Shown here one piece after another: positions 25,320-34,606 of a stretch of DNA of 34,606 nucleotides (its first letter is position 1; each line of letters begins with the position of its first letter). Location of the stretch: NCBI GenBank assembly GCA_038044245.1, contig JBBTAK010000032.1, positions 1 through 34,606 on the forward strand, given 5' to 3'. Origin of the DNA: Nanobdellota archaeon (GTDB taxonomy: Archaea; Nanobdellota; Nanobdellia; Pacearchaeales; GW2011-AR1). Below the pieces are notes generated by a model. It searched no databases, was not told the origin of the DNA, and worked only from the letters and a program-made list of their open reading frames with translations. The position numbers and the translations under genes are program-made.

Positions 25320-26165
25320 TTATTTTTTCCTGGAATGCTTTCTCGTTGTCGTTCTTTTTGATCTGTGGACAATGACGTGATGCTGCGGATGTGGAATATG
25401 GTGGTGTTTTTCCTCTGATTTTTTTGCCATATCCCCGACAATCTTCCCGAAGGAATCCTGCATCATATTCATTTCTTTTTTCATGGTCTCAAGCCCATGG
25501 CCATAGCCGCCGACTTTTTCAAGAATAGCTGCCTGGAGATTGTCTATTATTGATTCTATCTTTCTCAGCCTTTCTGAGATATGATCGAGCTTTGTCTGAG
25601 CAATTGCCCTGAATTCTTCGACATCATCGATCTTCTTCTGAAGAGGCTTATTTTTTTCCATAAATACCTGCTCAGATACCTCTATCATCGTGTCTGTGTC
25701 AATAGCCTGCGCTCCAGACATAGGAGAATATTGATAGGTTTCCTGAGGCATATTCTGATATTGCGCATATTGCCGGTATTGCTGGGGCTGATAGTAAGCC
25801 ATATTTTCCTGTTGGTCGTGCTGGTTGTACATTCCTCCATTTCCATTTGAAATCTCTTTTGTAACATTTCTCGGAATAGGAACAAATCCTCCTGGACTTG
25901 GAGGAGTCAGTTCAATGTCGCTGAGAGTTCCGCCTTCCAATCCTTCCAGAGGAAGTCTTTCTGGTTCTTCTTCAGAACTAAGGATAGAATGCTCCATTCC
26001 CTGCTCGATACCTGTAATACTCGATACTGCATTTTTTATCTGAGCTCTGCCTAGTGCATCGTTTATCTGAAGAGGAGAAAATCCCTGCTCCTGAAGAGCT
26101 CTTACGATATCCGAGTCAGAAGCCCCTCTTCTTCTTAGGTCCATCACCTGATCTAAAACACCCAT
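25320..26165 (-). CDS. protein with a small N-terminal helical domain, a Q/Y/P-rich low-complexity region, a coiled coil and a His/Arg/Lys-rich tail
   Basis: N-terminus VLDQVMDLRRRGASDSDIVRALQEQGFSPLQINDALGRAQ. Middle MYNQHDQQENMAYYQPQQYRQYAQYQNMPQETYQY. Coiled coil KKIDDVEEFRAIAQTKLDHISERLRKIESIIDNLQAAILEK (FlaC-like in character). Tail HHHIPHPQHHVIVHRSKRTTTRKHSRKK. Confidence 0.6.
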   Translation of the reverse strand: MGVLDQVMDLRRRGASDSDIVRALQEQGFSPLQINDALGRAQIKNAVSSITGIEQGMEHSILSSEEEPERLPLEGLEGGTLSDIELTPPSPGGFVPIPRNVTKEISNGNGGMYNQHDQQENMAYYQPQQYRQYAQYQNMPQETYQYSPMSGAQAIDTDTMIEVSEQVFMEKNKPLQKKIDDVEEFRAIAQTKLDHISERLRKIESIIDNLQAAILEKVGGYGHGLETMKKEMNMMQDSFGKIVGDMAKKSEEKHHHIPHPQHHVIVHRSKRTTTRKHSRKK

Positions 26166-26208: not shown

Positions 26209-26544
26209 TTATTTTTTTAAATCTTTTTTCCTTAAAATATCCAAAGGCCGGAACATCTTAGCCTGCCTTGAAAGTATTTCAAGATCCTCTTTTCTTGCAA
26301 ATTTTGAAAATTCAGAAGATGCTGTTTCAAGAAACGAAACAAGCCTTTCCATATTTTTCTTTATGACTTCCAGCTCTTGCTTTATCTCAAGAATGTCAGA
26401 GGTTGTTTTTTCCTTGGTTTCTATGAGATTCTGGCCTATGAGAAGAAGCCTGTCTCTCAACATCCTGTTTTTTTCTTCAAGGTCCCTGAATCTTGCAGCG
26501 ATATCCAATAAAAAGGGATCCATACCACCCTGAACTTCTTCCAT
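26209..26544 (-). CDS. small coiled-coil protein
   Basis: 111 aa, heptad-rich (RFRDLEEKNRMLRDRLLLIGQNLIETKEK...IKQELEVIKKNMERLVSFLE). First gene of the unit transcribed divergently from the pilus-type ATPase. Confidence 0.55.
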   Translation of the reverse strand: MEEVQGGMDPFLLDIAARFRDLEEKNRMLRDRLLLIGQNLIETKEKTTSDILEIKQELEVIKKNMERLVSFLETASSEFSKFARKEDLEILSRQAKMFRPLDILRKKDLKK

Positions 26545-26715: not shown

Positions 26716-29001
26716 ATGCAGCCGCAACAGGAAAAAAAAGCCTATTCTTACGAAATAAAAAGGGAAGGAGGGGAAGATATACTTTACATAGATTACATGG
26801 GTGCCCCTTACATCCCAAGCATAGCTGAATCTGCAGACGTCATGGCAAGAACAATAGATGCGCTGATGGAGAACCCAAATGTCTCAAGAGTGATTTTTAT
26901 ACAGCAAAAAAATTATAACTATGACCTTGAAGAGACATCGATGCTTCTTGAGATTGCCCAGCTTTATACTTATCTTATGAGGCAGGAAAAAGTTCTTTAC
27001 AGGGAGAAAATAGGAAGCATAGAACAATTTTTTTCGCAGAGATATAATGAAATTTTTTCTTTCCTCCTCCTTCTAAAGAGAGATCCTCTGGCAGCTTATG
27101 CGGAAATAAAAAAAATAATCATAAATTCTAAAATCTTTACGGAAAAACTTGGCCCAGGATACAGCAGTGATCAGGCAGGCTATACCGGTTTTCTTGAAAG
27201 AATATCATCCCTGCTGGAAAATACGCTCATAATACAGAGGGCACTGCCTTATCTTTCTGATTACACCAAGGGAAACAGGGATGTCTATTCCAGAATTTTC
27301 AGGCCAGATGTTATCCCTAATTTTATATTTACAAGGCTTGTCTCTGACCTTCCCGAAGATGCAGAGATTGTGAATCAGTATGAAATATCAAACGGGGAGC
27401 ATGATGTTTCTCTCGTTACTATATTGAGAAAAAAAGAAGAGCCCAAACTTATATATCATCTCCTTCCACCGGAAAATAATTTAAGCGAAGATCATTCTGG
27501 ATTGCTGAACACCGCAAGAAAAGTCCTTATAGAGCATCAGCCAAAAGCAGAAGAGTTTACAGATACAGAAAGGACAAGGCAGGTTTTCTTTAACATCTCC
27601 AAAGATTTGCTGCAGGATTTGGCACAGAGCAAGGGAGTAAAGGTGACATATTCGGATTTGAACAGGCTTGCAACTATTCTCGTGCGGCACACCATAGGCT
27701 TTGGCCTTATAGAAGTATTATTGCAGGACAAAAAACTCCAGGACATTTCCCTTAATGCACCTATACCGATGATACCGATTTTTGTGAGGCATCAGGACTA
27801 TGACGAGTGCATTACTAACATAATCCCGAGCCAGGAAGATGCAGATTCATGGGCTGCAAAATTCAGGCTTATTTCTGGAAGGCCTTTGGACGAGGCAAAT
27901 CCAATCCTTGATACCCAGCTTGAAATAGGAACAATCAGAGCCAGAATAGCAATAATCCAGAGACCAATGAGTCCTGATGGTTTAGCATATGCAATAAGGA
28001 GGCATAGAGAAGAACCATGGACTTTACCATTATTCATCCAGAACAAGATGATAGATTCTTTTACGGCAGGACTTTTGAGTTTTTTGATAGATGGCAGCAG
28101 GACATTGCTCGTTGCAGGAACAAGAAGCTCTGGAAAAACAAGCCTTCTCGGAAGCCTGATGCTTGAAATAATCCCAAAATACAGAATAATTGTCATAGAA
28201 GATTCTCTGGAACTGCCTGTAGAATCGCTGAGAAACTTAAAGTATGACATTCTCAGAATGAAAGTGCGTTCTGCGCTGCTGAAAACAACAACCGAAGTTT
28301 CTGCCGACGATGGAATAAGGACAAGCCTGAGACTGGGGGACAGCTCTCTGATAATAGGGGAAGTAAGAAGCGTTGAAGCACAGGCTCTTTACGAAGCCAT
28401 GAGAGTTGGCGCTCTTGCGAATGTTGTTGCCGGAACAATCCATGGGGCAAGCCCTTATGCTGTTTTTGATAGGGTAGTGAATGACCTGGACGTTCCCATC
28501 ACAAGTTTCAAAGCCACAGACATAATTGCGGTTGCAAATCCAATAAAAACTCCTGATGGTCTGCATTCATGGAAAAGACTTGTAAGACTTTCAGAAGTGA
28601 GAAAGCACTGGAAAAAAGATCCCCTTGAAGAAAAAGGTTTTGTGGACCTTTTGCAGTACAATGTTGAAAAAGATACATTGGAACCGACAGAGGATTTAAT
28701 CAACGGAGACAGTGAAATAATCAAAGACATAGCCTCTACTGTGAAAGGATGGGCAGGAAACTGGGACGCTGTTTATGACAATATCCTTCTGAGACAAAGA
28801 ATAAAGCAGGAAGTAGTCAATGCAGCAGAAAAGACAAAGAATTTCAAGCTTTTGGAAGCGAAATTCAATATGAAGGCTAACCATGCCTTTCATAGGATAT
28901 CTGATGAAGTAAGGGAAGAGATAGGACTGCCTCTTGGAGAAAAGGTTTTTCCTGCCTGGCAGAAATGGCTTCAGCAGGAGATAAAAAAGAGGAAAATCTA
29001 A
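26716..29001 (+). CDS. type II/IV secretion-system ATPase (GspE/PilB/FlaI/VirB11 superfamily), pilus/archaellum-type assembly ATPase with a long N-terminal region
   Basis: Walker A AGTRSSGKTS (nt about 28117-28143), Asp box IVIEDSLEL, Walker B region SLIIGEVRSVEA and His box AGTIHGAS, in canonical order. About 470 aa precede the P-loop. Confidence 0.85.
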   Translation: MQPQQEKKAYSYEIKREGGEDILYIDYMGAPYIPSIAESADVMARTIDALMENPNVSRVIFIQQKNYNYDLEETSMLLEIAQLYTYLMRQEKVLYREKIGSIEQFFSQRYNEIFSFLLLLKRDPLAAYAEIKKIIINSKIFTEKLGPGYSSDQAGYTGFLERISSLLENTLIIQRALPYLSDYTKGNRDVYSRIFRPDVIPNFIFTRLVSDLPEDAEIVNQYEISNGEHDVSLVTILRKKEEPKLIYHLLPPENNLSEDHSGLLNTARKVLIEHQPKAEEFTDTERTRQVFFNISKDLLQDLAQSKGVKVTYSDLNRLATILVRHTIGFGLIEVLLQDKKLQDISLNAPIPMIPIFVRHQDYDECITNIIPSQEDADSWAAKFRLISGRPLDEANPILDTQLEIGTIRARIAIIQRPMSPDGLAYAIRRHREEPWTLPLFIQNKMIDSFTAGLLSFLIDGSRTLLVAGTRSSGKTSLLGSLMLEIIPKYRIIVIEDSLELPVESLRNLKYDILRMKVRSALLKTTTEVSADDGIRTSLRLGDSSLIIGEVRSVEAQALYEAMRVGALANVVAGTIHGASPYAVFDRVVNDLDVPITSFKATDIIAVANPIKTPDGLHSWKRLVRLSEVRKHWKKDPLEEKGFVDLLQYNVEKDTLEPTEDLINGDSEIIKDIASTVKGWAGNWDAVYDNILLRQRIKQEVVNAAEKTKNFKLLEAKFNMKANHAFHRISDEVREEIGLPLGEKVFPAWQKWLQQEIKKRKI

Positions 29002-30006
29002 ATGAAGATATGGATCAGGATTTTTTTTATTGCAGCAGTGCTGGGATTGGCTGCTTACATCGTTACAAGCATAGATCTGGGGGAAGCTTATGATTCTTTG
29101 AGCCAGGCAGATGGCCTTTATCTTTTTCTTGCATTTGCCTCATATTTCATAACTTTTTTTATATTTTCAATCAGGAATTTTTATTTTTTCCGCTGGCTTC
29201 TGAAGCCAGACTATATGTTTCTTATCGAAACTGTTTTTGCAGGCTTTTTTTTGAATACAGTCCTTCCCAGTGCCCAGATAGGCGGAGATCCACCAAAAGC
29301 CTATGCATTTGGGCTGAAGTACAATAAACCGGTTTCAAAAACTTTCGGAGTGATTTTTGCCGACAAGATAATCCACATCCTTTCTCTGTTACTTTTCATA
29401 TTTTTTTCAGTCATTTATCTCGTAACATTCATGCCTCTTCCCAGAGAATTCGAGGTTGTTCTTCAGGCTTTTCTCTTTTTCATTTTTATTGTTTCAATCA
29501 TAATCCCTATTTTTAGCATGAGAAAAACAAAAACAAGCCTTTATCTTGTGTTAAAAAAATCCAGGATGATTTCATGGTTAAATCCTTTTAAGAAGAATTC
29601 CAAACTTCAGGAAAGAATAGGAAAACATATAGGTGATTTTACAAGAGCATTTAAGAGAACTCTCAGGACAAAAAAGATACTCTTTCTGGGAATTGTTCTC
29701 TCTATAATTTACTGGATACTGAATTATTTTGTTTCCTATTTCCTGTTCTTGTCGCTTGGAATCAAGATAAATTTCTTATTAGTCATAGTTGTCTTTAGCC
29801 TTGTAAGTTTTGCAGGAGTGTTTTTTCCGACTCCAGGAGGAGTGGGTTTGATTGAAAGCCTTATGATATTTCTTTATTCACTGGCAGGAGTTGATCTTGA
29901 AACAGCAATAATTGTCTCCCTGCTGACAAGAGTTATTTTCTATTTCTATGCAATAGTCATAGGCGGCATTTCCCTTATTCACCTTGAAAATACGCTGAAA
30001 TCTTAA
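29002..30006 (+). CDS. UPF0104 / lysyl-phosphatidylglycerol-synthase-TM (flippase-like) family membrane protein
   Basis: About 8 TM spans. Contains LPSAQIGGDPPKAY and the family hallmark FFPTPGGVGLIESLM. Its ATG directly abuts the ATPase stop (TAAATG). Confidence 0.65.
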   Translation: MKIWIRIFFIAAVLGLAAYIVTSIDLGEAYDSLSQADGLYLFLAFASYFITFFIFSIRNFYFFRWLLKPDYMFLIETVFAGFFLNTVLPSAQIGGDPPKAYAFGLKYNKPVSKTFGVIFADKIIHILSLLLFIFFSVIYLVTFMPLPREFEVVLQAFLFFIFIVSIIIPIFSMRKTKTSLYLVLKKSRMISWLNPFKKNSKLQERIGKHIGDFTRAFKRTLRTKKILFLGIVLSIIYWILNYFVSYFLFLSLGIKINFLLVIVVFSLVSFAGVFFPTPGGVGLIESLMIFLYSLAGVDLETAIIVSLLTRVIFYFYAIVIGGISLIHLENTLKS

Positions 30007-30015
30007 CATTTATTA
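30006..30015 (+). promoter_or_regulatory. ACATTTATTA module, copy 1
   Basis: Exact 10-mer immediately after the stop of 29002..30006. It recurs at 32246 and 32498. Confidence 0.45.
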
Positions 30016-30091
30016 ATTAGATTTCATTCTTCACTTCATCGGTTAAAAGTGGCGACAAATATTGTGGTAAATATAAAAAGAGGTCGGCAAA

Positions 30092-32242
30092 ATGAGCGAT
30101 GATGTTGAGGAAATTCTGAAAAAATACGGCAGCAAGATAGAAGGTCAGTTGGGAATTCAGGAAAATAAACAGAGCGAGTCCTACTTAAAATTCAAGGACG
30201 AGATGTCGCCCCCAGTTTCAAAATACGAGCGCTGGGCAAAAAGTCTTGGAAATATAATAAAGCTGAAAGTCGCTGAAAAAGATGCCTTAAAGATAAAAAA
30301 ATCTTTAGACATAGCTCATCTTGACCTGGAGCCATGGCAGCCCTTGACTCTAAGCATCATGGCATTTCTTGGAACTCTCTTCCTCGGGCTTCTGATATCT
30401 TTGTCTGTTTTTTTCATAAGAGGATTCACGGGCTTTCCTGTTTTGTTTTTTTTCCTTGCAGTCATATTTTCTTTCTTTGTTTTTTATTTTGTTAGCGGAT
30501 ACCCCGCAAGGCTTGCGAATTCTTGGCGTTTGAAGGCCTCAAGCCAGATGGTTCCCTCGATACTTTACATCGTCGTTTACATGAGACATACGCCAAATCT
30601 TGAAAGAGCAGTAGCCTTTGCCTCAGAGCACTTGGAATATCCCCTTGCCCTTGATTTCAAAAAAGTTTTTTATGATGTTCAGGTAGGCAGATTTTCCAGC
30701 ATTAAAGACAGCCTTGATAATTATCTTGAAACATGGAGGGATTATTCTTCCGAGTTTATAGAATCATTCCACCTCATAGAAAGCAGTCTTTTTGAACCCG
30801 ACAACTCGCACAGGATTGCAACCCTGGAGAAAGCATTGAAAGTCGTCTTAGATGGAGTTTATGACAAAATGCTAAGATTCACGCATAATGTTAAAAGCCC
30901 GTTGACAAACGTTTACATGCTTGGCGTCGTATTACCAACTCTTGGGCTTGCGCTTCTTCCATTGGCAACGGCAATGTTGGGGGGATTGTTAAACTGGGTC
31001 CATATTTTCATACTCTTTAATCTTATAATTCCGTTTTTCGTTTTTTACCTGACTGACAAAGTTTTGTTTTTAAGGCCAGGAGGCCACGGAGAATCCTCTC
31101 TTCTCGAAAGAAATCCCCTTTATCCAAAATATAAGAGCAAGGCACCATACCTCAAGGCATTTATCCTTGTTCTGCCGCTTTTAGTAATAGGATTTTTACC
31201 ATTTATTTTTCAGTATACTTCTTTTCCCGAGATGCTTGGCTTGCAGAAAGATTATACATTTTCCCAGATAGGACTGGGATTTTTTGGAGATGATAAGATT
31301 TTTGGTTTTGTGGACATGGGCAATGGACAAAGCGCAGGACCTCTTGGAATTGGAGCATTGTTATTAAGCATGCTCATACCTTTGGGAATTGCCCTGTTTT
31401 TTTCACTTTCTTACAAAGAGAAAACAAAGGAGATGATAATTGAAAGGGAAAAAACCAATCAGCTTGAAACTGAGTTTAACAATTCTTTGTTCCAGCTTGG
31501 AAACAGGATAGGAAACGGAGTTCCCCCGGAAATAGCATTCGGAAAAATAGCAGAATCTTCCCGCGGTTTGCAAACAGAAGATTTCTTCATGAGGGTGAAT
31601 TACAACATACGGCAGATGGGAATGAGCGTGGAAAGGGCGATTTTTGACACAAAAAGGGGAGCAGTCGTCTATTATCCCTCTGATTTAATTTCCACGAGCA
31701 TGAAAATCCTTGTAGAAGCTTCGAAAAAAGGGCTGCAGATTGCAGCCTTAAGCCTCATGAGCATATCAGAGTATGTTAAAAATTTGCAGAAGATAACCTC
31801 CAGGCTCAAGGACCTTTTGGCAGAAGTCATCTCTGACATGAAATCCAACATGACTTTCCTTGCTCCTCTTCTTTCAGGAGTTGTCGTTGGCCTTGCGGCG
31901 ATGATAACTTCTATTCTTACAAGATTAAAATTAAGCGAATTGAGCGGCCAGGGAACAGAGGCTTTGGGAAATCTTGGAAACATAATAAATATCTTTGATG
32001 TGACTTCAATGATCCCACCTTACTTTTTGCAGATAATAATAGGATTGTACCTCATTGAGATAGTTTTCATACTCACACGGGCTTTGGTCACGATAGATTC
32101 CGGAGAAGACAAATTAGAAAGAACAAATAAAACAGGAAGAAACCTGACCAGCGCAATGATGCTTTATTTCATCACTGCATTTCTGGCAGTTGTAATGCTG
32201 TTTGTTCTGACATCCATAGTTGTCGGAGGATTGGTTCCTTAA
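30092..32242 (+). CDS. FlaJ/TadC/PilC-like (T2SS-F type) polytopic platform protein
   Basis: 716 aa. Two soluble helical modules are each followed by TM bundles (about aa 150-300 and 480-620, e.g. IAFGKIAESSRGLQTEDFF...RAIFDT...ISTSMKILVEASKKGLQ...). This is the architecture of secretion-system F proteins, and the gene lies next to the ATPase. An SD-like AGAGGT sits 7 nt upstream. Confidence 0.6.
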   Translation: MSDDVEEILKKYGSKIEGQLGIQENKQSESYLKFKDEMSPPVSKYERWAKSLGNIIKLKVAEKDALKIKKSLDIAHLDLEPWQPLTLSIMAFLGTLFLGLLISLSVFFIRGFTGFPVLFFFLAVIFSFFVFYFVSGYPARLANSWRLKASSQMVPSILYIVVYMRHTPNLERAVAFASEHLEYPLALDFKKVFYDVQVGRFSSIKDSLDNYLETWRDYSSEFIESFHLIESSLFEPDNSHRIATLEKALKVVLDGVYDKMLRFTHNVKSPLTNVYMLGVVLPTLGLALLPLATAMLGGLLNWVHIFILFNLIIPFFVFYLTDKVLFLRPGGHGESSLLERNPLYPKYKSKAPYLKAFILVLPLLVIGFLPFIFQYTSFPEMLGLQKDYTFSQIGLGFFGDDKIFGFVDMGNGQSAGPLGIGALLLSMLIPLGIALFFSLSYKEKTKEMIIEREKTNQLETEFNNSLFQLGNRIGNGVPPEIAFGKIAESSRGLQTEDFFMRVNYNIRQMGMSVERAIFDTKRGAVVYYPSDLISTSMKILVEASKKGLQIAALSLMSISEYVKNLQKITSRLKDLLAEVISDMKSNMTFLAPLLSGVVVGLAAMITSILTRLKLSELSGQGTEALGNLGNIINIFDVTSMIPPYFLQIIIGLYLIEIVFILTRALVTIDSGEDKLERTNKTGRNLTSAMMLYFITAFLAVVMLFVLTSIVVGGLVP

Positions 32243-32245
32243 TCC

Positions 32246-32255
32246 ACATTTATTA
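32246..32255 (+). promoter_or_regulatory. ACATTTATTA module, copy 2
   Basis: Exact 10-mer 4 nt after the stop of the FlaJ-like gene, upstream of small ORF 32294. Confidence 0.45.
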
Positions 32256-32293
32256 TTAGTTAACTTTATTAATTTGGATTTATACTGATTGAA

Positions 32294-32470
32294 ATGGGAA
32301 AAGGCATAGGTTTATTTTATCTTCTTATTGGTGCAGGAATTGTTTATATAAGATTTTTCAGTGATGCCTTTCCAACCAATGCGGGAGTCTTGTCCCAATA
32401 TTTCTTACCTATAATTGGAATAAGCTTCATCTTAATGGGATTATCTAGTCTTTTCAGAAAACAAAAATAA
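32294..32470 (+). CDS. 58-aa two-TM hairpin membrane protein (untracked small ORF; paralog of 21626..21802)
   Basis: My own translation: MGKGIGLFYLLIGAGIVYIRFFSDAFPTNAGVLSQYFLPIIGISFILMGLSSLFRKQK. Confidence 0.55.
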   Translation: MGKGIGLFYLLIGAGIVYIRFFSDAFPTNAGVLSQYFLPIIGISFILMGLSSLFRKQK

Positions 32471-32497
32471 TTCTCCCGTTGACTCTCCTCGCTAAAA

Positions 32498-32507
32498 ACA
32501 TTTATTA
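32498..32507 (+). promoter_or_regulatory. ACATTTATTA module, copy 3
   Basis: Exact 10-mer upstream of 32557. The following about 40 nt (..TGGATTT..TGAATATGAGAAAC..) loosely repeats the sequence after copy 2 (..TGGATTT..TGAAATGGGAAAAG..). Confidence 0.45.
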
Positions 32508-32556
32508 ACTATTATGGATTTTCTTTGAATATGAGAAACTATAGAGGTGAAGATGT

Positions 32557-32988
32557 ATGAAATTAAGTGAGTTACTCAAACCCACAAAATTCAAATTAAT
32601 ATTATTCGTGATAACCTTTGTTATACTTTACATCATTTTATTCACGATACCAATTACAATCCCGGCAAGAGTGCAGTGTTTTAAAAATCCCTGCCCACAA
32701 GAAATTACCACAAATCTTATTCATTTATTGCTACCTTATTCATTACTACCTGATTTAATTGGCGGATTGTTTCTACCCATAATTATCTTATTAGTAATAT
32801 CATATCTGATTGCATCACTGATTGGATACGAAAGTGGCAGTAAAAAAGACAAAAGAGGCCTTGTCACTGAAACTCTACCACTGTGGGCAATAGCCTTGGC
32901 TGTTCTTGTCGTGCTTATGATTACCATATTCATATTAAGGGAGAAGGGCATTTTACTCATAGAAAAAATCAAGGATATTTTTCGGTGA
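32557..32988 (+). CDS. membrane protein with an internal class-III-signal-like motif (KRG|LVTETL plus a hydrophobic helix)
   Basis: 143 aa. GAGGTGA Shine-Dalgarno motif 6 nt upstream of the ATG. Internal SGSKKDKRGLVTETLPLWAIALAVLVVLMITIFIL resembles a prepilin leader and helix. Confidence 0.6.
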   Translation: MKLSELLKPTKFKLILFVITFVILYIILFTIPITIPARVQCFKNPCPQEITTNLIHLLLPYSLLPDLIGGLFLPIIILLVISYLIASLIGYESGSKKDKRGLVTETLPLWAIALAVLVVLMITIFILREKGILLIEKIKDIFR

Positions 32989-33005
32989 AACAATAAAACG
33001 TTAAA

Positions 33006-33170
33006 ATGCTGATAGAAGAGAATCTGATAAAGTGGATTGTTGCAGTTGTCGTTATTGTCTTAGTTATCGGAGGAATTTCCCTGTTTTTCAAGGATTATGT
33101 CATAGACTTTTTTAGGGGCCTCGGAGGAGAGCCTGCAAAAGCCATCTTTGGAATTTTGAAATAAAATGAA
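33006..33170 (+). CDS. 54-aa pilin-helix-like peptide (untracked small ORF)
   Basis: My own translation: MLIEENLIKWIVAVVVIVLVIGGISLFFKDYVIDFFRGPRRRACKSHLWNFEIK. Its stop overlaps the next ATG (ATGA at 33166-33170). Confidence 0.45.
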
Positions 33171-33723
33171 AAATAAAAAAGGATTTCTACTGGCAGAAGA
33201 AACATTAAAACTGGTTGTAGCGGTGATTGCTCTTGGCTTTTTGGTTTATCTTTTGGTAGCATTGTATCTCTCTACCAACAAGTCACAGGAATTAGAGCAG
33301 GCAAAATCTTCCCTAAATTTTTTGGTGTCTGAAATAAATTCCGGAAAAGAAAGGGTTGATATCTACAATCCTAAAGGATGGTGGATTGGAGCATGGCCCC
33401 ACAATTTTAAGGCCACAGACCCTTTGAATCCCAACAAAATAGAAAGACGACTCCCTGGTTCATGCTCTAATCTTGGATGGGAGAACTGCATATGCATATG
33501 TGAGGAAGATAATGCAGATAGCTGCGATAAAAAGTGGGTATGCCTGGATAATGCTCAAAAATTTGAAACAGTTGGAGAATTAAGACTCCTGCCAGGAGGA
33601 ACCGAAGTTTTCCAGGAGGAGAGTATCCAGATAAAAAATCCTCCAATAACACTTAACATAGACCAAACAAATAAAAAAATAAGTCTTGTTACAGAACAAG
33701 CTGGCGGAGGCGGTGGATTTTAA
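33166..33723 (+). CDS. type IV pilin-like protein with a class III signal peptide and a Cys-rich globular domain
   Basis: MKNKKG|FLLAEETLKLVVAVIALGFLVYLLV has a basic leader, Gly at -1, Glu at +5 and a hydrophobic helix. The domain carries 7 Cys (CSNLGWENCICICEEDNADSCDKKWVC). The C-terminus is GGGGGF. Confidence 0.65.
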   Translation: MKNKKGFLLAEETLKLVVAVIALGFLVYLLVALYLSTNKSQELEQAKSSLNFLVSEINSGKERVDIYNPKGWWIGAWPHNFKATDPLNPNKIERRLPGSCSNLGWENCICICEEDNADSCDKKWVCLDNAQKFETVGELRLLPGGTEVFQEESIQIKNPPITLNIDQTNKKISLVTEQAGGGGGF

Positions 33724-33731
33724 AATTTAAA

Positions 33732-33833
33732 ATGGACTTAGAGGACTTTATAACATATGCGGTATGGATAATCTTCTTTGCAGTTGCCCTGTTGGGAGTA
33801 TATTTTCTGCTGAAAAAACTTGGAGTGATGTAA
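33732..33833 (+). CDS. 33-aa single-helix membrane peptide (untracked small ORF)
   Basis: My own translation: MDLEDFITYAVWIIFFAVALLGVYFLLKKLGVM. It fills the gap between neighbouring genes exactly (8 nt and 1 nt spacers). Confidence 0.4.
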   Translation: MDLEDFITYAVWIIFFAVALLGVYFLLKKLGVM

Positions 33834-33834
33834 A

Positions 33835-34557
33835 ATGGAAAGAAAAATGTTAATCGGGATGATAATTCTTATAGCGAGCTTTATCATAATCCTCCTTTTG
33901 ATTTTTAGGCTTAATCTTGGAGGAACGACCGATGCTGAAATCTGCAGAAATTCTCTTGTTTTAAGAGATAAGCCTCTTGGTGATTTTGTGTCTTCTATTG
34001 ATTGCAAAACTAGCTATCTGTGCGTTTCGGGCGGTGGAGATTGTGAAGTGACAGCATCAGAGAAATTTGTTGTTGATCCAAAAAATAAAGAAGAGATAAT
34101 GAAAATTTTAGCTGATGAAATGTCTTCATGCTGGTGGCAGTTTGGAGAAGGTAAGATTGACTTTAGGGCAAATCCAAGAGAGGGTGGAACCGCTATTACA
34201 TGTGCTGTTTGTTCCTTAGTTAATTTTAAAGATATCCCTCAAGAAGAAGAAACGATATCTTATGCAGAATTTTACAATTATCTGAGAACAACTCAAAAAA
34301 TAAAATCCCAGACTTACTTACAATATCTTTATTCAGAAAATAATCTTGACTTTCTTTCCGAAGATTATCTGAATAATAATCTTGAATTAAATAAACAATA
34401 CTTTATTTTGACAGCAATAACTAAGGATAGCATCTGGAGTTATACTCCCTTTGTCAGATTGTATATAAATCCAGACTATCAACCCCCGATAATATTGGAA
34501 CAAAACAAAGATAACTACGATCAACTTAAATGTGATGAATTTGTTAATAAAGCATAA
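33835..34557 (+). CDS. N-terminally anchored Cys-rich extracellular protein (pilus-locus associated)
   Basis: 240 aa. MERKMLIGMIILIASFIIILLLIF anchor, 9 Cys in the ectodomain, and an SD-like GGAGTGA upstream. Confidence 0.6.
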   Translation: MERKMLIGMIILIASFIIILLLIFRLNLGGTTDAEICRNSLVLRDKPLGDFVSSIDCKTSYLCVSGGGDCEVTASEKFVVDPKNKEEIMKILADEMSSCWWQFGEGKIDFRANPREGGTAITCAVCSLVNFKDIPQEEETISYAEFYNYLRTTQKIKSQTYLQYLYSENNLDFLSEDYLNNNLELNKQYFILTAITKDSIWSYTPFVRLYINPDYQPPIILEQNKDNYDQLKCDEFVNKA

Positions 34558-34558
34558 A

Positions 34559-34606
34559 ATGAGAAAGATAGGAAAAAGAGGAGACACAAATATTCTCACA
34601 GGAAAC
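34559..34606 (+). CDS. start of a further operon gene, 3'-truncated by the window edge
   Basis: The ATG lies 1 nt after the previous stop. MRKIGKRGDTNILTGN stays open to the window end. KRG|DT fits a class-III-signal cleavage pattern, but the hydrophobic segment is not visible. Confidence 0.35.
   Translation, partial: MRKIGKRGDTNILTGN

Follow-up and report, generated by a model that had tools for sequence, protein, structure and literature searches.

The sequence studied here, referred to as the window, comprises 34,606 nt from a Nanobdellota archaeon (Pacearchaeales; GW2011-AR1; assembly GCA_038044245.1, contig JBBTAK010000032.1), at the end of which (26716-34606) lies a string of genes that an earlier note on this DNA had read as a type IV pilus/archaellum-superfamily locus, not an archaellum. 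This reading is supported by the family of the ATPase, the family of the platform protein, the peptidase and the gene content, and the pilus cluster is a genuine, widespread system of the type IV filament (TFF) superfamily, built from standard parts, with a strikingly small pilin and core proteins that have diverged very far. The open reading frames (ORFs) previously listed for the locus exist on the plus strand at the coordinates given for them, apart from minor errors. Its principal genes are the following, whereby an arrow denotes the putative cleavage site of a class III signal peptide (SPIII):

26716-29001, plus strand: assembly ATPase of 761 aa, T2SS-E/TadA/FlaI superfamily, assigned from Pfam, PDB and NCBIfam matches and from its motifs
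30092-32242, plus strand: polytopic platform protein of 716 aa, highly diverged member of the T2SSF / FlaJ / TadC family with two helical domains in the cytoplasm, assigned from family-expansion evidence
32557-32988, plus strand: ORF of 143 aa (p143), with a mini-pilin module at residues 96-143 (32842-32988), KKDKRG↓LVTETLPLWAIALAVLVVLMITIFILREKGILLIEKIKDIFR
33166-33723, plus strand: pilin-like protein of 185 aa (p185), MKNKKG↓FLLAEETLK..., with Glu at +5 and 6 Cys in the external domain
33835-34557, plus strand: N-terminally anchored Cys-rich protein of 240 aa (p240) with 8 Cys, whose orthologs are class III pilin-like
34559-34606, plus strand: first codons of p133, the following gene for a class III pilin-like protein, MRKIGKRGDTNILTGN..., truncated by the window end
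36967-37815 in window-equivalent numbering (13133-13981 of contig L001), same operon: Peptidase_A24 protein of 282 aa, Pfam match at 3.5e-13

The 761-aa protein is matched by Pfam T2SSE over residues 413-587 (2.2e-13, above the gathering score) and finds its best PDB match in GspE2 of A. fulgidus (2oap, 5.2e-31, residues 218-640), followed by CpaF (1.8e-21) and FlaI (1e-13). The match to VirB11 (1.2e-5) is confined to the P-loop core, and a clustering of the ATPase with the VirB11 camp, which the earlier note had named as a finding that would overturn its reading, is contradicted by this ranking. Among the NCBIfam models those of FlaI (1.2e-34) and of the TadA family (7e-34) came out on top, both far under their cut-offs, with TrbB, VirB11 and ComGA scoring much lower. 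The catalytic motifs are intact and comprise the Walker A motif GTRSSGKT at residues 468-475, the Asp box IIVIEDSLEL at residues 491-500, the Walker B motif at about residues 543-551 (LIIGEVR, 545-551) and the His box (H576), all of them read from the alignment to the PDB matches. As a consequence of the Walker A position some 467 residues precede the P-loop, in agreement with the roughly 470 aa counted before. Relative to GspE2, residues 1 to ~215 are extra, and an AlphaFold2 (AF2) model of residues 1-300, computed with 48 homologs, reached predicted local distance difference test (pLDDT) values of 85-97 over residues 20-190 and displayed a beta-beta-alpha-beta-beta unit followed by a helical bundle. 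When these N-terminal 300 residues were compared with the PDB by Foldseek, no fold match was obtained (best E 0.39), and PF27254, which one precomputed record lists on a fragment of an ATPase ortholog, was not reported by a Pfam scan of that fragment. Judged from its sequence, the protein is assigned as an archaeal-type secretion ATPase of the hexameric type, with a predicted family-specific N-terminal domain of ~200 aa. Subsystem-specific N-terminal domains have already been described for archaeal TFF ATPases (bioRxiv 10.64898/2026.04.22.720090).

For the 716-aa protein the assignment was reached by expansion of its family. More than 3300 close homologs were found in metagenome-assembled genomes labelled Nanoarchaeota, Pacearchaeota or Woesearchaeota, with the top 120 at 68-87% identity, and one JGI record names such a homolog TadB. 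An exhaustive search at E<=1e-3 returned 1042 representative clusters, of which almost all have a length of ~700 aa. Pfam T2SSF is matched by 17 of 53 diverse full-length family members (best 3.2e-10) and Spore_III_AB by three; two members found at E 1e-59 to 1e-64, P0249 (30.4 bits) and P0268 (32.8 bits), exceed the T2SSF gathering score of 25.2, and P0249 and P0266 each possess two T2SSF stretches. When profiles of the family were compared with PDB sequences, profile A1 gave no match and the diverse profile A2 gave the cytoplasmic domain of EpsF/GspF as its sole match (E 0.21). The AF2 model of the protein is all-helical and places two soluble helical domains between transmembrane (TM) blocks, with local or low-ranked Foldseek matches to SpoIIIAB (6bs9, probability 0.97, target template-modelling score (TMt) 0.51), which we take to share the GspF cytoplasmic-domain fold, and to PilC (3jc8_Ca, probability 0.44). 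Transitive homology and these fold hints identify the 716-aa protein as a T2SSF platform, diverged in sequence, with two domains and encoded by a single gene, and a lack of T2SS-F homology, which had likewise been considered as a reason to give up the pilus reading, is not what was found. A single platform gene is present in all 82 loci of the comparison set, which was drawn from species-representative genomes, contains about 60 loci with enough flanking DNA and in which orthologs were placed by tblastn.

The continuation of the locus past the window end became accessible through groundwater metagenomes. The 240-aa protein was found encoded on two ENA groundwater contigs of 23.4 kb and 107.8 kb, the names of which start with 'Hain_H43_01um', and contig L001 agrees with the window without a mismatch across an overlap of 10,772 nt, so that a window position equals the L001 position plus 23834. 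Past the window end, L001 encodes p133, p169, p142, p100 and p136, all five N-terminally anchored, then p39, the Peptidase_A24 protein and a convergent HIT-family gene. The peptidase gene belongs to the same string of genes and begins ~2.4 kb downstream of the window end, and its product, possessing about seven hydrophobic segments, aligns to FlaK of M. maripaludis (3s0x, 2.3e-8), whereby VQDLKTREI and AGGDAKLL fall on FlaK's two catalytic Asp motifs; the NCBIfam model FlaK_Arch matches at 4.8e-12, under the equivalog cut-off. From these alignments the operon-terminal protein is predicted to be a FlaK-like A24 aspartyl prepilin peptidase. The previously reported absence of a prepilin peptidase therefore holds for the window, the end of which cuts the operon, and fails for the operon itself, whose continuation on L001 closes with the A24 gene; a genome devoid of such a peptidase, the third finding that had been expected to speak against a pilus, is accordingly not the case here.

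Putative substrates of such a peptidase were recognised in eight ortholog groups which carry a short basic leader, the motif [KR]-[GA] and then a strongly hydrophobic helix of ~20 residues, the motif being kept in 88-98% of orthologs. Class III signals were judged by motif and hydrophobic helix alone, and counts refer to the loci possessing the respective ortholog:

Mini-pilin (orthologs of p143): motif in 51 of 57, G↓(I/V)(I/V)S(E/D)YLPW
p185: motif in 59 of 64, G↓FLLAEE
p240: motif in 58 of 62, G↓ELTTKQ
p133: motif in 53 of 56, G↓NILTEN
p169: motif in 49 of 54, G↓xDKIISVYWF
p142: motif in 28 of 32, (A/G)↓QIGETITW
p100: motif in 43 of 45, G↓DIPITILV
p136: motif in 43 of 44, G↓QGLSTNAIIL

The gene located right after the platform gene in 57 other loci is an ORF of 45-55 aa, the product of which has a median mature length of 43 aa, lacks a globular domain and follows the consensus M..KK[KR]G↓IISEYLPWILIAVAVLVILMITIFILKGKGVSLIDKIKDLFR. 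Neither this conserved mini-pilin module, which resides within the 143-aa ORF of the window, nor the eight class III-signal products had been recognised in the earlier note. Consensus residues +1 to +6 are F-L-L-A-E-E in p185 and E-L-T-T-Q/K-Q in p240, and p133 in full has 133 aa (MRKIGKRG↓DTNILTGNIIFIVLNLAF...). Despite its G↓FLLAE sequence, p185 was matched neither by the bacterial prepilin-type N-terminal model (TIGR02532-type) nor by any other NCBIfam or Pfam pilin model at E<=0.1. Orthologs of p185, p240, p169 and p136 possess median Cys numbers of 6, 8, 4 and 6, respectively, which suggests disulfide-bonded external domains. Within the window the description 'Cys-rich', originally applied to the pilin-like products as a whole, fits p185 (6 Cys) and p240 (8 Cys) and does not fit p143 (2 Cys) or two further small products, p52 and p33 (0 Cys each). 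For finding pilins of this kind the motifs G↓IISEYLPW, G↓FLLAEE, G↓ELTTKQ, G↓NILTEN, G↓QIGETITW, G↓DIPITILV and G↓QGLSTN are usable.

Comparison across loci revealed one conserved order, in which two genes on the opposite strand (up281 and up111) are followed by the ATPase gene, a variable site, the platform gene, a second variable site, the mini-pilin gene and then p52, p185, p33, p240, p133, p169, p142, p100, p136, in part of the loci p39, the A24 peptidase gene and, again on the opposite strand, the HIT gene. This synteny holds in about 60 of the 82 loci, namely those carrying sufficient flank; the platform gene is present in at least 584 species-representative genomes, and its product is 63-87% identical between Pacearchaeota species. 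All four parts which define a TFF system (ATPase, platform, class III peptidase and subunits with class III signals) are present and conserved. Taken together, the window very probably covers the first two-thirds of a TFF operon which is complete and has been conserved vertically in DPANN archaea of the Pacearchaeota type, and the product of this operon is a TFF assembly system with the same high probability. Some public records carrying the locus or its proteins bear bacterial labels, namely 'bacterium' (L064), Omnitrophota (L070), Bacillota (P0095), Patescibacteria (P0292) and Paceibacterota (P0331), which are probably binning or taxonomy errors.

Besides these genes the locus and its flanks contain the following features:

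33006-33164, plus strand: single-TM mini-protein of 52 aa (p52), M(S)ELTIxQLIKIILG... in orthologs, pilin-helix-like, without a [KR]-G leader
33732-33833, plus strand: single-TM mini-protein of 33 aa (p33), MDLEDFIKYLIWIVFF..., conserved, not a class III substrate
36748-36867 in window-equivalent numbering (12914-13033 of L001): basic ORF of 39 aa (p39), MDYGFSEKRTKRKDKRREKKKHPYRKGG..., just upstream of the peptidase gene
25320-26165, minus strand: cytoplasmic protein of 281 aa (up281), with a small N-terminal domain, a Q/Y-rich linker and a C-terminal coiled coil
26209-26544, minus strand: coiled-coil protein of 111 aa (up111), encoded divergently beside the ATPase gene and present in 53 of the 82 loci
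29002-30006, plus strand: flippase-like membrane protein of 334 aa, UPF0104 / LPG_synthase_TM (PF03706, TIGR00374)
32294-32470, plus strand: two-TM hairpin ORF of 58 aa with two hydrophobic segments, an organism-specific insert

The two mini-proteins are retained in place, p52 in at least 25 loci and p33 in 52 of 82, and are set apart from the pilin groups by the frequency of the class III motif, which amounts to 4-10% in them (1 of 25 for p52, 5 of 51 for p33) against 88-98% in the eight class III groups. At its N-terminus, M(S)ELTIxQLIK..., p52 looks like the mature end of a p240-type pilin (ELTTKQL...), minus the leader. The small basic p39 was found in 15 of the 82 loci. Upstream of the ATPase, the 281-aa gene occurs in 53 of 82 loci with constant orientation, and orthologs of the 111-aa protein, found at 48-84% identity, are always placed between it and the ATPase gene. 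Neither protein could be assigned to a family, as the 281-aa protein has no significant Pfam, NCBIfam or PDB match (chance-level coiled-coil matches at most) and the 111-aa protein none in Pfam or NCBIfam; the divergent coiled-coil pair may constitute accessory or regulatory parts of the pilus system. The remaining genes of the window are archaeal housekeeping genes, namely Cdc6, PolD DP1/DP2, a class I tRNA synthetase and a Hef/XPF helicase-nuclease.

The details of the ORF map require some correction. The gene listed as encoding 54 aa encodes 52 aa (p52, 33006-33164). Spacers of 1-8 nt, described for the string as a whole, are found from p52 to p185 (1 nt), p185 to p33 (8 nt), p33 to p240 (1 nt) and p240 to the next gene (1 nt), and not elsewhere, since the first five junctions from the ATPase gene onward measure 0 (ATPase to flippase-like gene, TAAATG), 85, 51, 86 and 17 nt. 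ATGA overlaps, which had also been reported, are absent from the window, the first one being located just outside, between p133 and p169 (L001 11123-11126).

The 'unusual composition' that had been taken as the defining trait of the locus results mostly from lineage-specific insertion, as the flippase-like gene, the 58-aa ORF and a two-TM extension of p143 sit at variable sites or occur in this organism only, and as a long N-terminus of the ATPase has already been recognised elsewhere. The flippase-like identity of the 334-aa protein itself was borne out by matches to PF03706 (2.5e-38, residues 4-321 on profile positions 2-302) and to TIGR00374 (1.3e-40, above cut-off). No more than 8 of the 82 loci have its gene between those of ATPase and platform, one of them in inverted orientation, and a role as a conserved glycolipid or pilin-modification part of the system was rejected given this count and the nature of the site, which is a variable hot spot. 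Among the 59 loci with both genes, the distance from ATPase to platform gene varies between 61 nt and 9.7 kb, and in 20 of them this gap is 215 nt or less. Cargo of this gap in other loci comprises UvrA/C/B-like and RecQ-like genes (both identified by eye), nucleotidyltransferase-like pairs, toxin-antitoxin-like genes, a methyltransferase-like gene, small tail-anchored proteins, giant surface proteins or nothing, with L039 3141-10001, L007 268-10001, L079 5252-10001 and L012 7221-10001 as example intervals. The giant secreted proteins (411-1859 aa), a frequent cargo of the hot spot, contain repeated Cys-rich modules of the form 'C.DSDGG.NY..KG ... EYYC ... C.NGC..G.C' and were located at L007 4303-9883, L079 5314-9922, L057 5968-9766, L075 427-3055, L050 8402-9914 and L008 6495-7731, the one in L079 combining a PQQ-type beta-propeller with a weak S-layer-like C-terminal domain. 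They are candidate adhesins or surface proteins located beside the pilus genes.

The junction between the platform and mini-pilin genes is a second variable insertion site. Here the window possesses the 58-aa ORF, which was matched only in L001 and L002, i.e., in the same organism, has no family match in Pfam or NCBIfam and is possibly not functional. The following 143-aa ORF fuses the mini-pilin module in frame behind a two-TM extension of ~95 aa, an extension likewise restricted to L001 and L002. In the window sequence no in-frame ATG, GTG or TTG lies between codon 71 and the mini-pilin module, and the window contains no second, normal copy of the mini-pilin. A predicted topology with the N-terminus inside would place KKDKRG at the cytoplasmic side and thus make internal cleavage conceivable. 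By its sequence, the fusion would, if functional, depend on a class III cleavage inside a polytopic precursor; if it is not functional, this organism would have an impaired candidate for the major pilin. In addition, p240 of this organism has lost its leader and cleavage motif and starts with MERKMLIGMII..., as compared to KKG↓ELTTKQ in its orthologs. None of the three lineage-specific insertions, namely the flippase-like gene, the 58-aa ORF and the two-TM extension, is counted as part of the machine.

From the parts described above, a working model for filament formation can be drawn. It assumes that the peptidase would cut the leaders at the cytoplasmic face of the membrane, upon which the ATPase, docked on the platform, would pull the mature subunits out of the membrane and polymerise them into a thin filament. 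The mini-pilin of ~43 residues, a bare hydrophobic helix with a short amphipathic tail as in Epd and Flp pilins, would serve as bulk subunit, while the remaining seven pilin-like proteins, which are larger and of which four possess conserved external domains rich in Cys, would be minor or tip pilins, priming assembly and conferring adhesive specificity. Both p52 and p33 as well as the divergent coiled-coil pair are suggested to be accessory parts, probably. DPANN archaea such as the Pacearchaeota are an uncultured group, abundant in groundwater and thought to be host-dependent. For such an organism the most likely role of the filament is attachment to surfaces or to host cells, and DNA or nutrient uptake is possible. 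Pili-like filaments were seen on ultrasmall groundwater cells by cryo-transmission electron microscopy (cryo-TEM), the taxon in the images not being identified (PMC7906910).

Several observations weigh against the identification of the locus as an intact TFF operon and against the model built on it. The 716-aa protein of the window itself has no direct Pfam, NCBIfam or PDB sequence match; a Foldseek search with its whole model, which is of medium confidence (pLDDT 67.7), returned nothing significant, and the internal duplication was not significant either, as hhalign aligned the N-terminal half with the C-terminal half in sensible register at E 0.09 and a BLASTP self-comparison was weak. None of the curated pilin models (Flp_Fap, class III signal, archaeal pilin N-terminal and GFxxxE in Pfam/NCBIfam) matches any of the pilin-like proteins, which leaves motif, topology and context as the basis for calling them pilins, and the rank of the mini-pilin as what is probably the major subunit is one that we infer. 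Unrelated genes often lie between the gene of the ATPase and that of the platform, and it can therefore not be taken for granted that the whole cluster is co-transcribed. Considering both the fused mini-pilin and the motif loss in p240, the system of this particular organism could be altered or partly degenerate. The role in attachment, finally, is one we infer, and it is much less certain than the TFF identity.

Other machines built from the same superfamilies have to be weighed against a long adhesive pilus. It is unlikely, yet worth stating, that the locus encodes a short pseudopilus or a secretion or anchoring TFF machine, comparable to the type II secretion system (T2SS) or to a bindosome, which exposes or releases Cys-rich proteins at the cell surface. 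Such a machine would account for the many larger class III proteins (seven) whose external domains are Cys-rich, next to just one tiny subunit; TFF machines functionalised with SPIII binding proteins have been proposed (bioRxiv 10.64898/2026.04.22.720090), and the ATPase has a weak NCBIfam match to BasE of the bindosome (1.9e-15). However, the BasE match stands far behind those of FlaI and TadA, no class III protein matches a substrate-binding-protein family in Pfam or NCBIfam, a mini-pilin without globular domain adjoining the platform gene follows the pattern of Epd/Tad filaments, and the pili-like filaments of ultrasmall groundwater cells, which were not assigned to a taxon (PMC7906910), likewise argue for a filament. 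A ComG-like competence pilus, the main task of which would be to import DNA from the environment and thereby to supply nucleotides to an organism poor in biosynthesis, is suggested by the gene order ATPase, platform, small major pilin, minor pilins, peptidase, which parallels that of the Com system (comGA-GG/comC). Pilus-borne DNA uptake has moreover been proposed for ultrasmall groundwater organisms (PMC9938205), and the ComGA model of NCBIfam matches the ATPase weakly (3.1e-9). This match is, however, many orders of magnitude weaker than those to archaeal and Tad ATPases, the locus encodes no retraction ATPase, and no homolog of ComEC, ComEA or DprA is present in the window, in L001 or in the syntenic loci. 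A competence pilus is even less likely than the pseudopilus.

An archaellum operon serving motility or a conjugative VirB11-type type IV secretion system (T4SS) might be suspected from names, as FlaI is the top NCBIfam name of the ATPase (1.2e-34), one source names an ortholog FlaI, and the VirB11 and TrbB models match as well. The scores do not sustain this suspicion, since FlaI reaches 120 bits against a cut-off of 550 bits, TrbB and VirB11 reach 55-59 bits against cut-offs of 250-300, and the VirB11 match in the PDB, covering the P-loop core only, lies 16-25 orders of magnitude below those to GspE2 and CpaF. The gene content points in the same direction, as no FlaA/B, FlaF, FlaG, FlaH, FlaC/D/E or FlaX families were detected by Pfam and NCBIfam in the window and L001, VirB4, VirD4 and a relaxase are lacking in the neighbourhood, and a prepilin peptidase is present together with class III pilins. 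Contradicted by both gene content and match ranking, an archaellum or T4SS is extremely improbable. A TFF assembly system which would form a pilus stays the favoured reading.

With respect to its significance, T4P-like (type IV pilus-like) genes of DPANN archaea are known in general terms (PMC6142677), and no published description was found of the Pacearchaeota cluster, its mini-pilin or its pilin set. The locus is among the best-conserved surface-structure gene sets of Pacearchaeota, and as the platform identity of 63-87% extends over hundreds of species, the system becomes a concrete candidate for what was observed as filaments in cryo-TEM. As platform and all pilins escape the standard Pfam and NCBIfam models, model-based censuses may under-count it. 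With its ~43 residues, the pilin is to our knowledge among the shortest pilins known. A more far-reaching reading, which as a whole has to be called doubtful, would see here a distinct, unclassified TFF lineage of Pacearchaeota, extending across the platform family of ~1000 clusters, with a filament of ~43-residue pilins devoid of a globular domain, assembled by one fused platform together with an ATPase whose N-terminal domain is new in structure. Such a lineage could be a sister or an ancestor of Epd and could form the host-piercing 'pili-like appendages' of ultrasmall groundwater cells, and in the organism studied here an internal class III cleavage would free the mini-pilin from its polytopic two-TM precursor, a mode of processing which is not known to have been described.

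For the comparison of the TFF system with those already known, the classification of Makarova et al. 2016 (PMC4858521) and of Sivabalasarma & Albers 2026 (bioRxiv 10.64898/2026.04.22.720090) was used, whereby likeness to System 2 was judged by the feature list of the latter preprint and by the ranking of PDB and NCBIfam matches. The archaellum (FlaI/FlaJ/FlaK) shares the three superfamilies with the locus, FlaK even being the best solved match of the peptidase, but the locus lacks archaellins, the FlaF/G stator, FlaH and FlaC/D/E/X, and its FlaI and FlaK equivalog scores are far under the cut-offs. With the Aap and Ups pili of the Sulfolobales it has in common a non-motility TFF core of ATPase, platform and class III pilins. 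It differs from them in that it has neither an Fe-S protein (AapX) nor an UpsX-like component, in that the pilins of Aap and Ups possess globular domains, in the N-terminal domain of its ATPase, which is without structural match in the PDB, and in its occurrence in DPANN archaea instead of Thermoproteota.

Closer resemblance was found to the Epd pilus of Methanococcus maripaludis (System 1) and to Tad-Flp. The Epd system is described as having a main pilin without C-terminal globular domain, its own dedicated class III peptidase and a cluster of ~11+ genes (bioRxiv 10.64898/2026.04.22.720090), and the locus combines a mini-pilin without globular domain, its putative major subunit, and a dedicated peptidase in a long co-oriented cluster of ~11+ genes. 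Its ATPase, furthermore, is strongly matched to CpaF and to the TadA-family model, at the E-values given above. The Flp motif reads 'G/XXXXEY', of which the G↓xxx(E/D)Y of the mini-pilin is reminiscent; however, E/D-Y stands at +4/+5 and not at +5/+6, and the mini-pilins match neither Pfam Flp_Fap nor another model. The platform of Epd and Tad is made of two genes (EpdJ/K; TadB/TadC), as opposed to the one 716-aa protein of the locus, and the peptidase is FlaK-like with ~7 hydrophobic segments, unlike the 9-TM EpdA type (PMC4858521). System 2, exemplified by the PilB3/PilC3 loci of Haloferax volcanii and by uncharacterised loci of Archaeoglobus fulgidus (PMC4858521; bioRxiv 10.64898/2026.04.22.720090), resembles the locus in the extended N-terminus of the ATPase, in the single-gene platform and in the mix of pilin-like proteins with SPIII (eight groups) and without (p52, p33), and the nearest solved ATPase, GspE2, is also from A. 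fulgidus. The locus differs from System 2 in its platform, which is too diverged for the T2SSF models of Pfam and NCBIfam, in its first pilin, a mini-pilin of ~43 residues without globular domain, in its peptidase gene, located inside the operon, and in its lack of a MinD-like ATPase. The claim that the system matches no described one was therefore too strong, as part of its features resembles System 2 and another part the Epd/Tad type; as far as sequence and gene order can tell, the locus appears to mix features of System 2 with Epd/Tad-like ones. The bacterial Tad/Flp pilus is thought to be derived from the Epd system, and the mini-pilin together with the single fused platform, by linking Epd/Tad-type features to System 2, bears on the archaeal origin of the bacterial Tad pilus.

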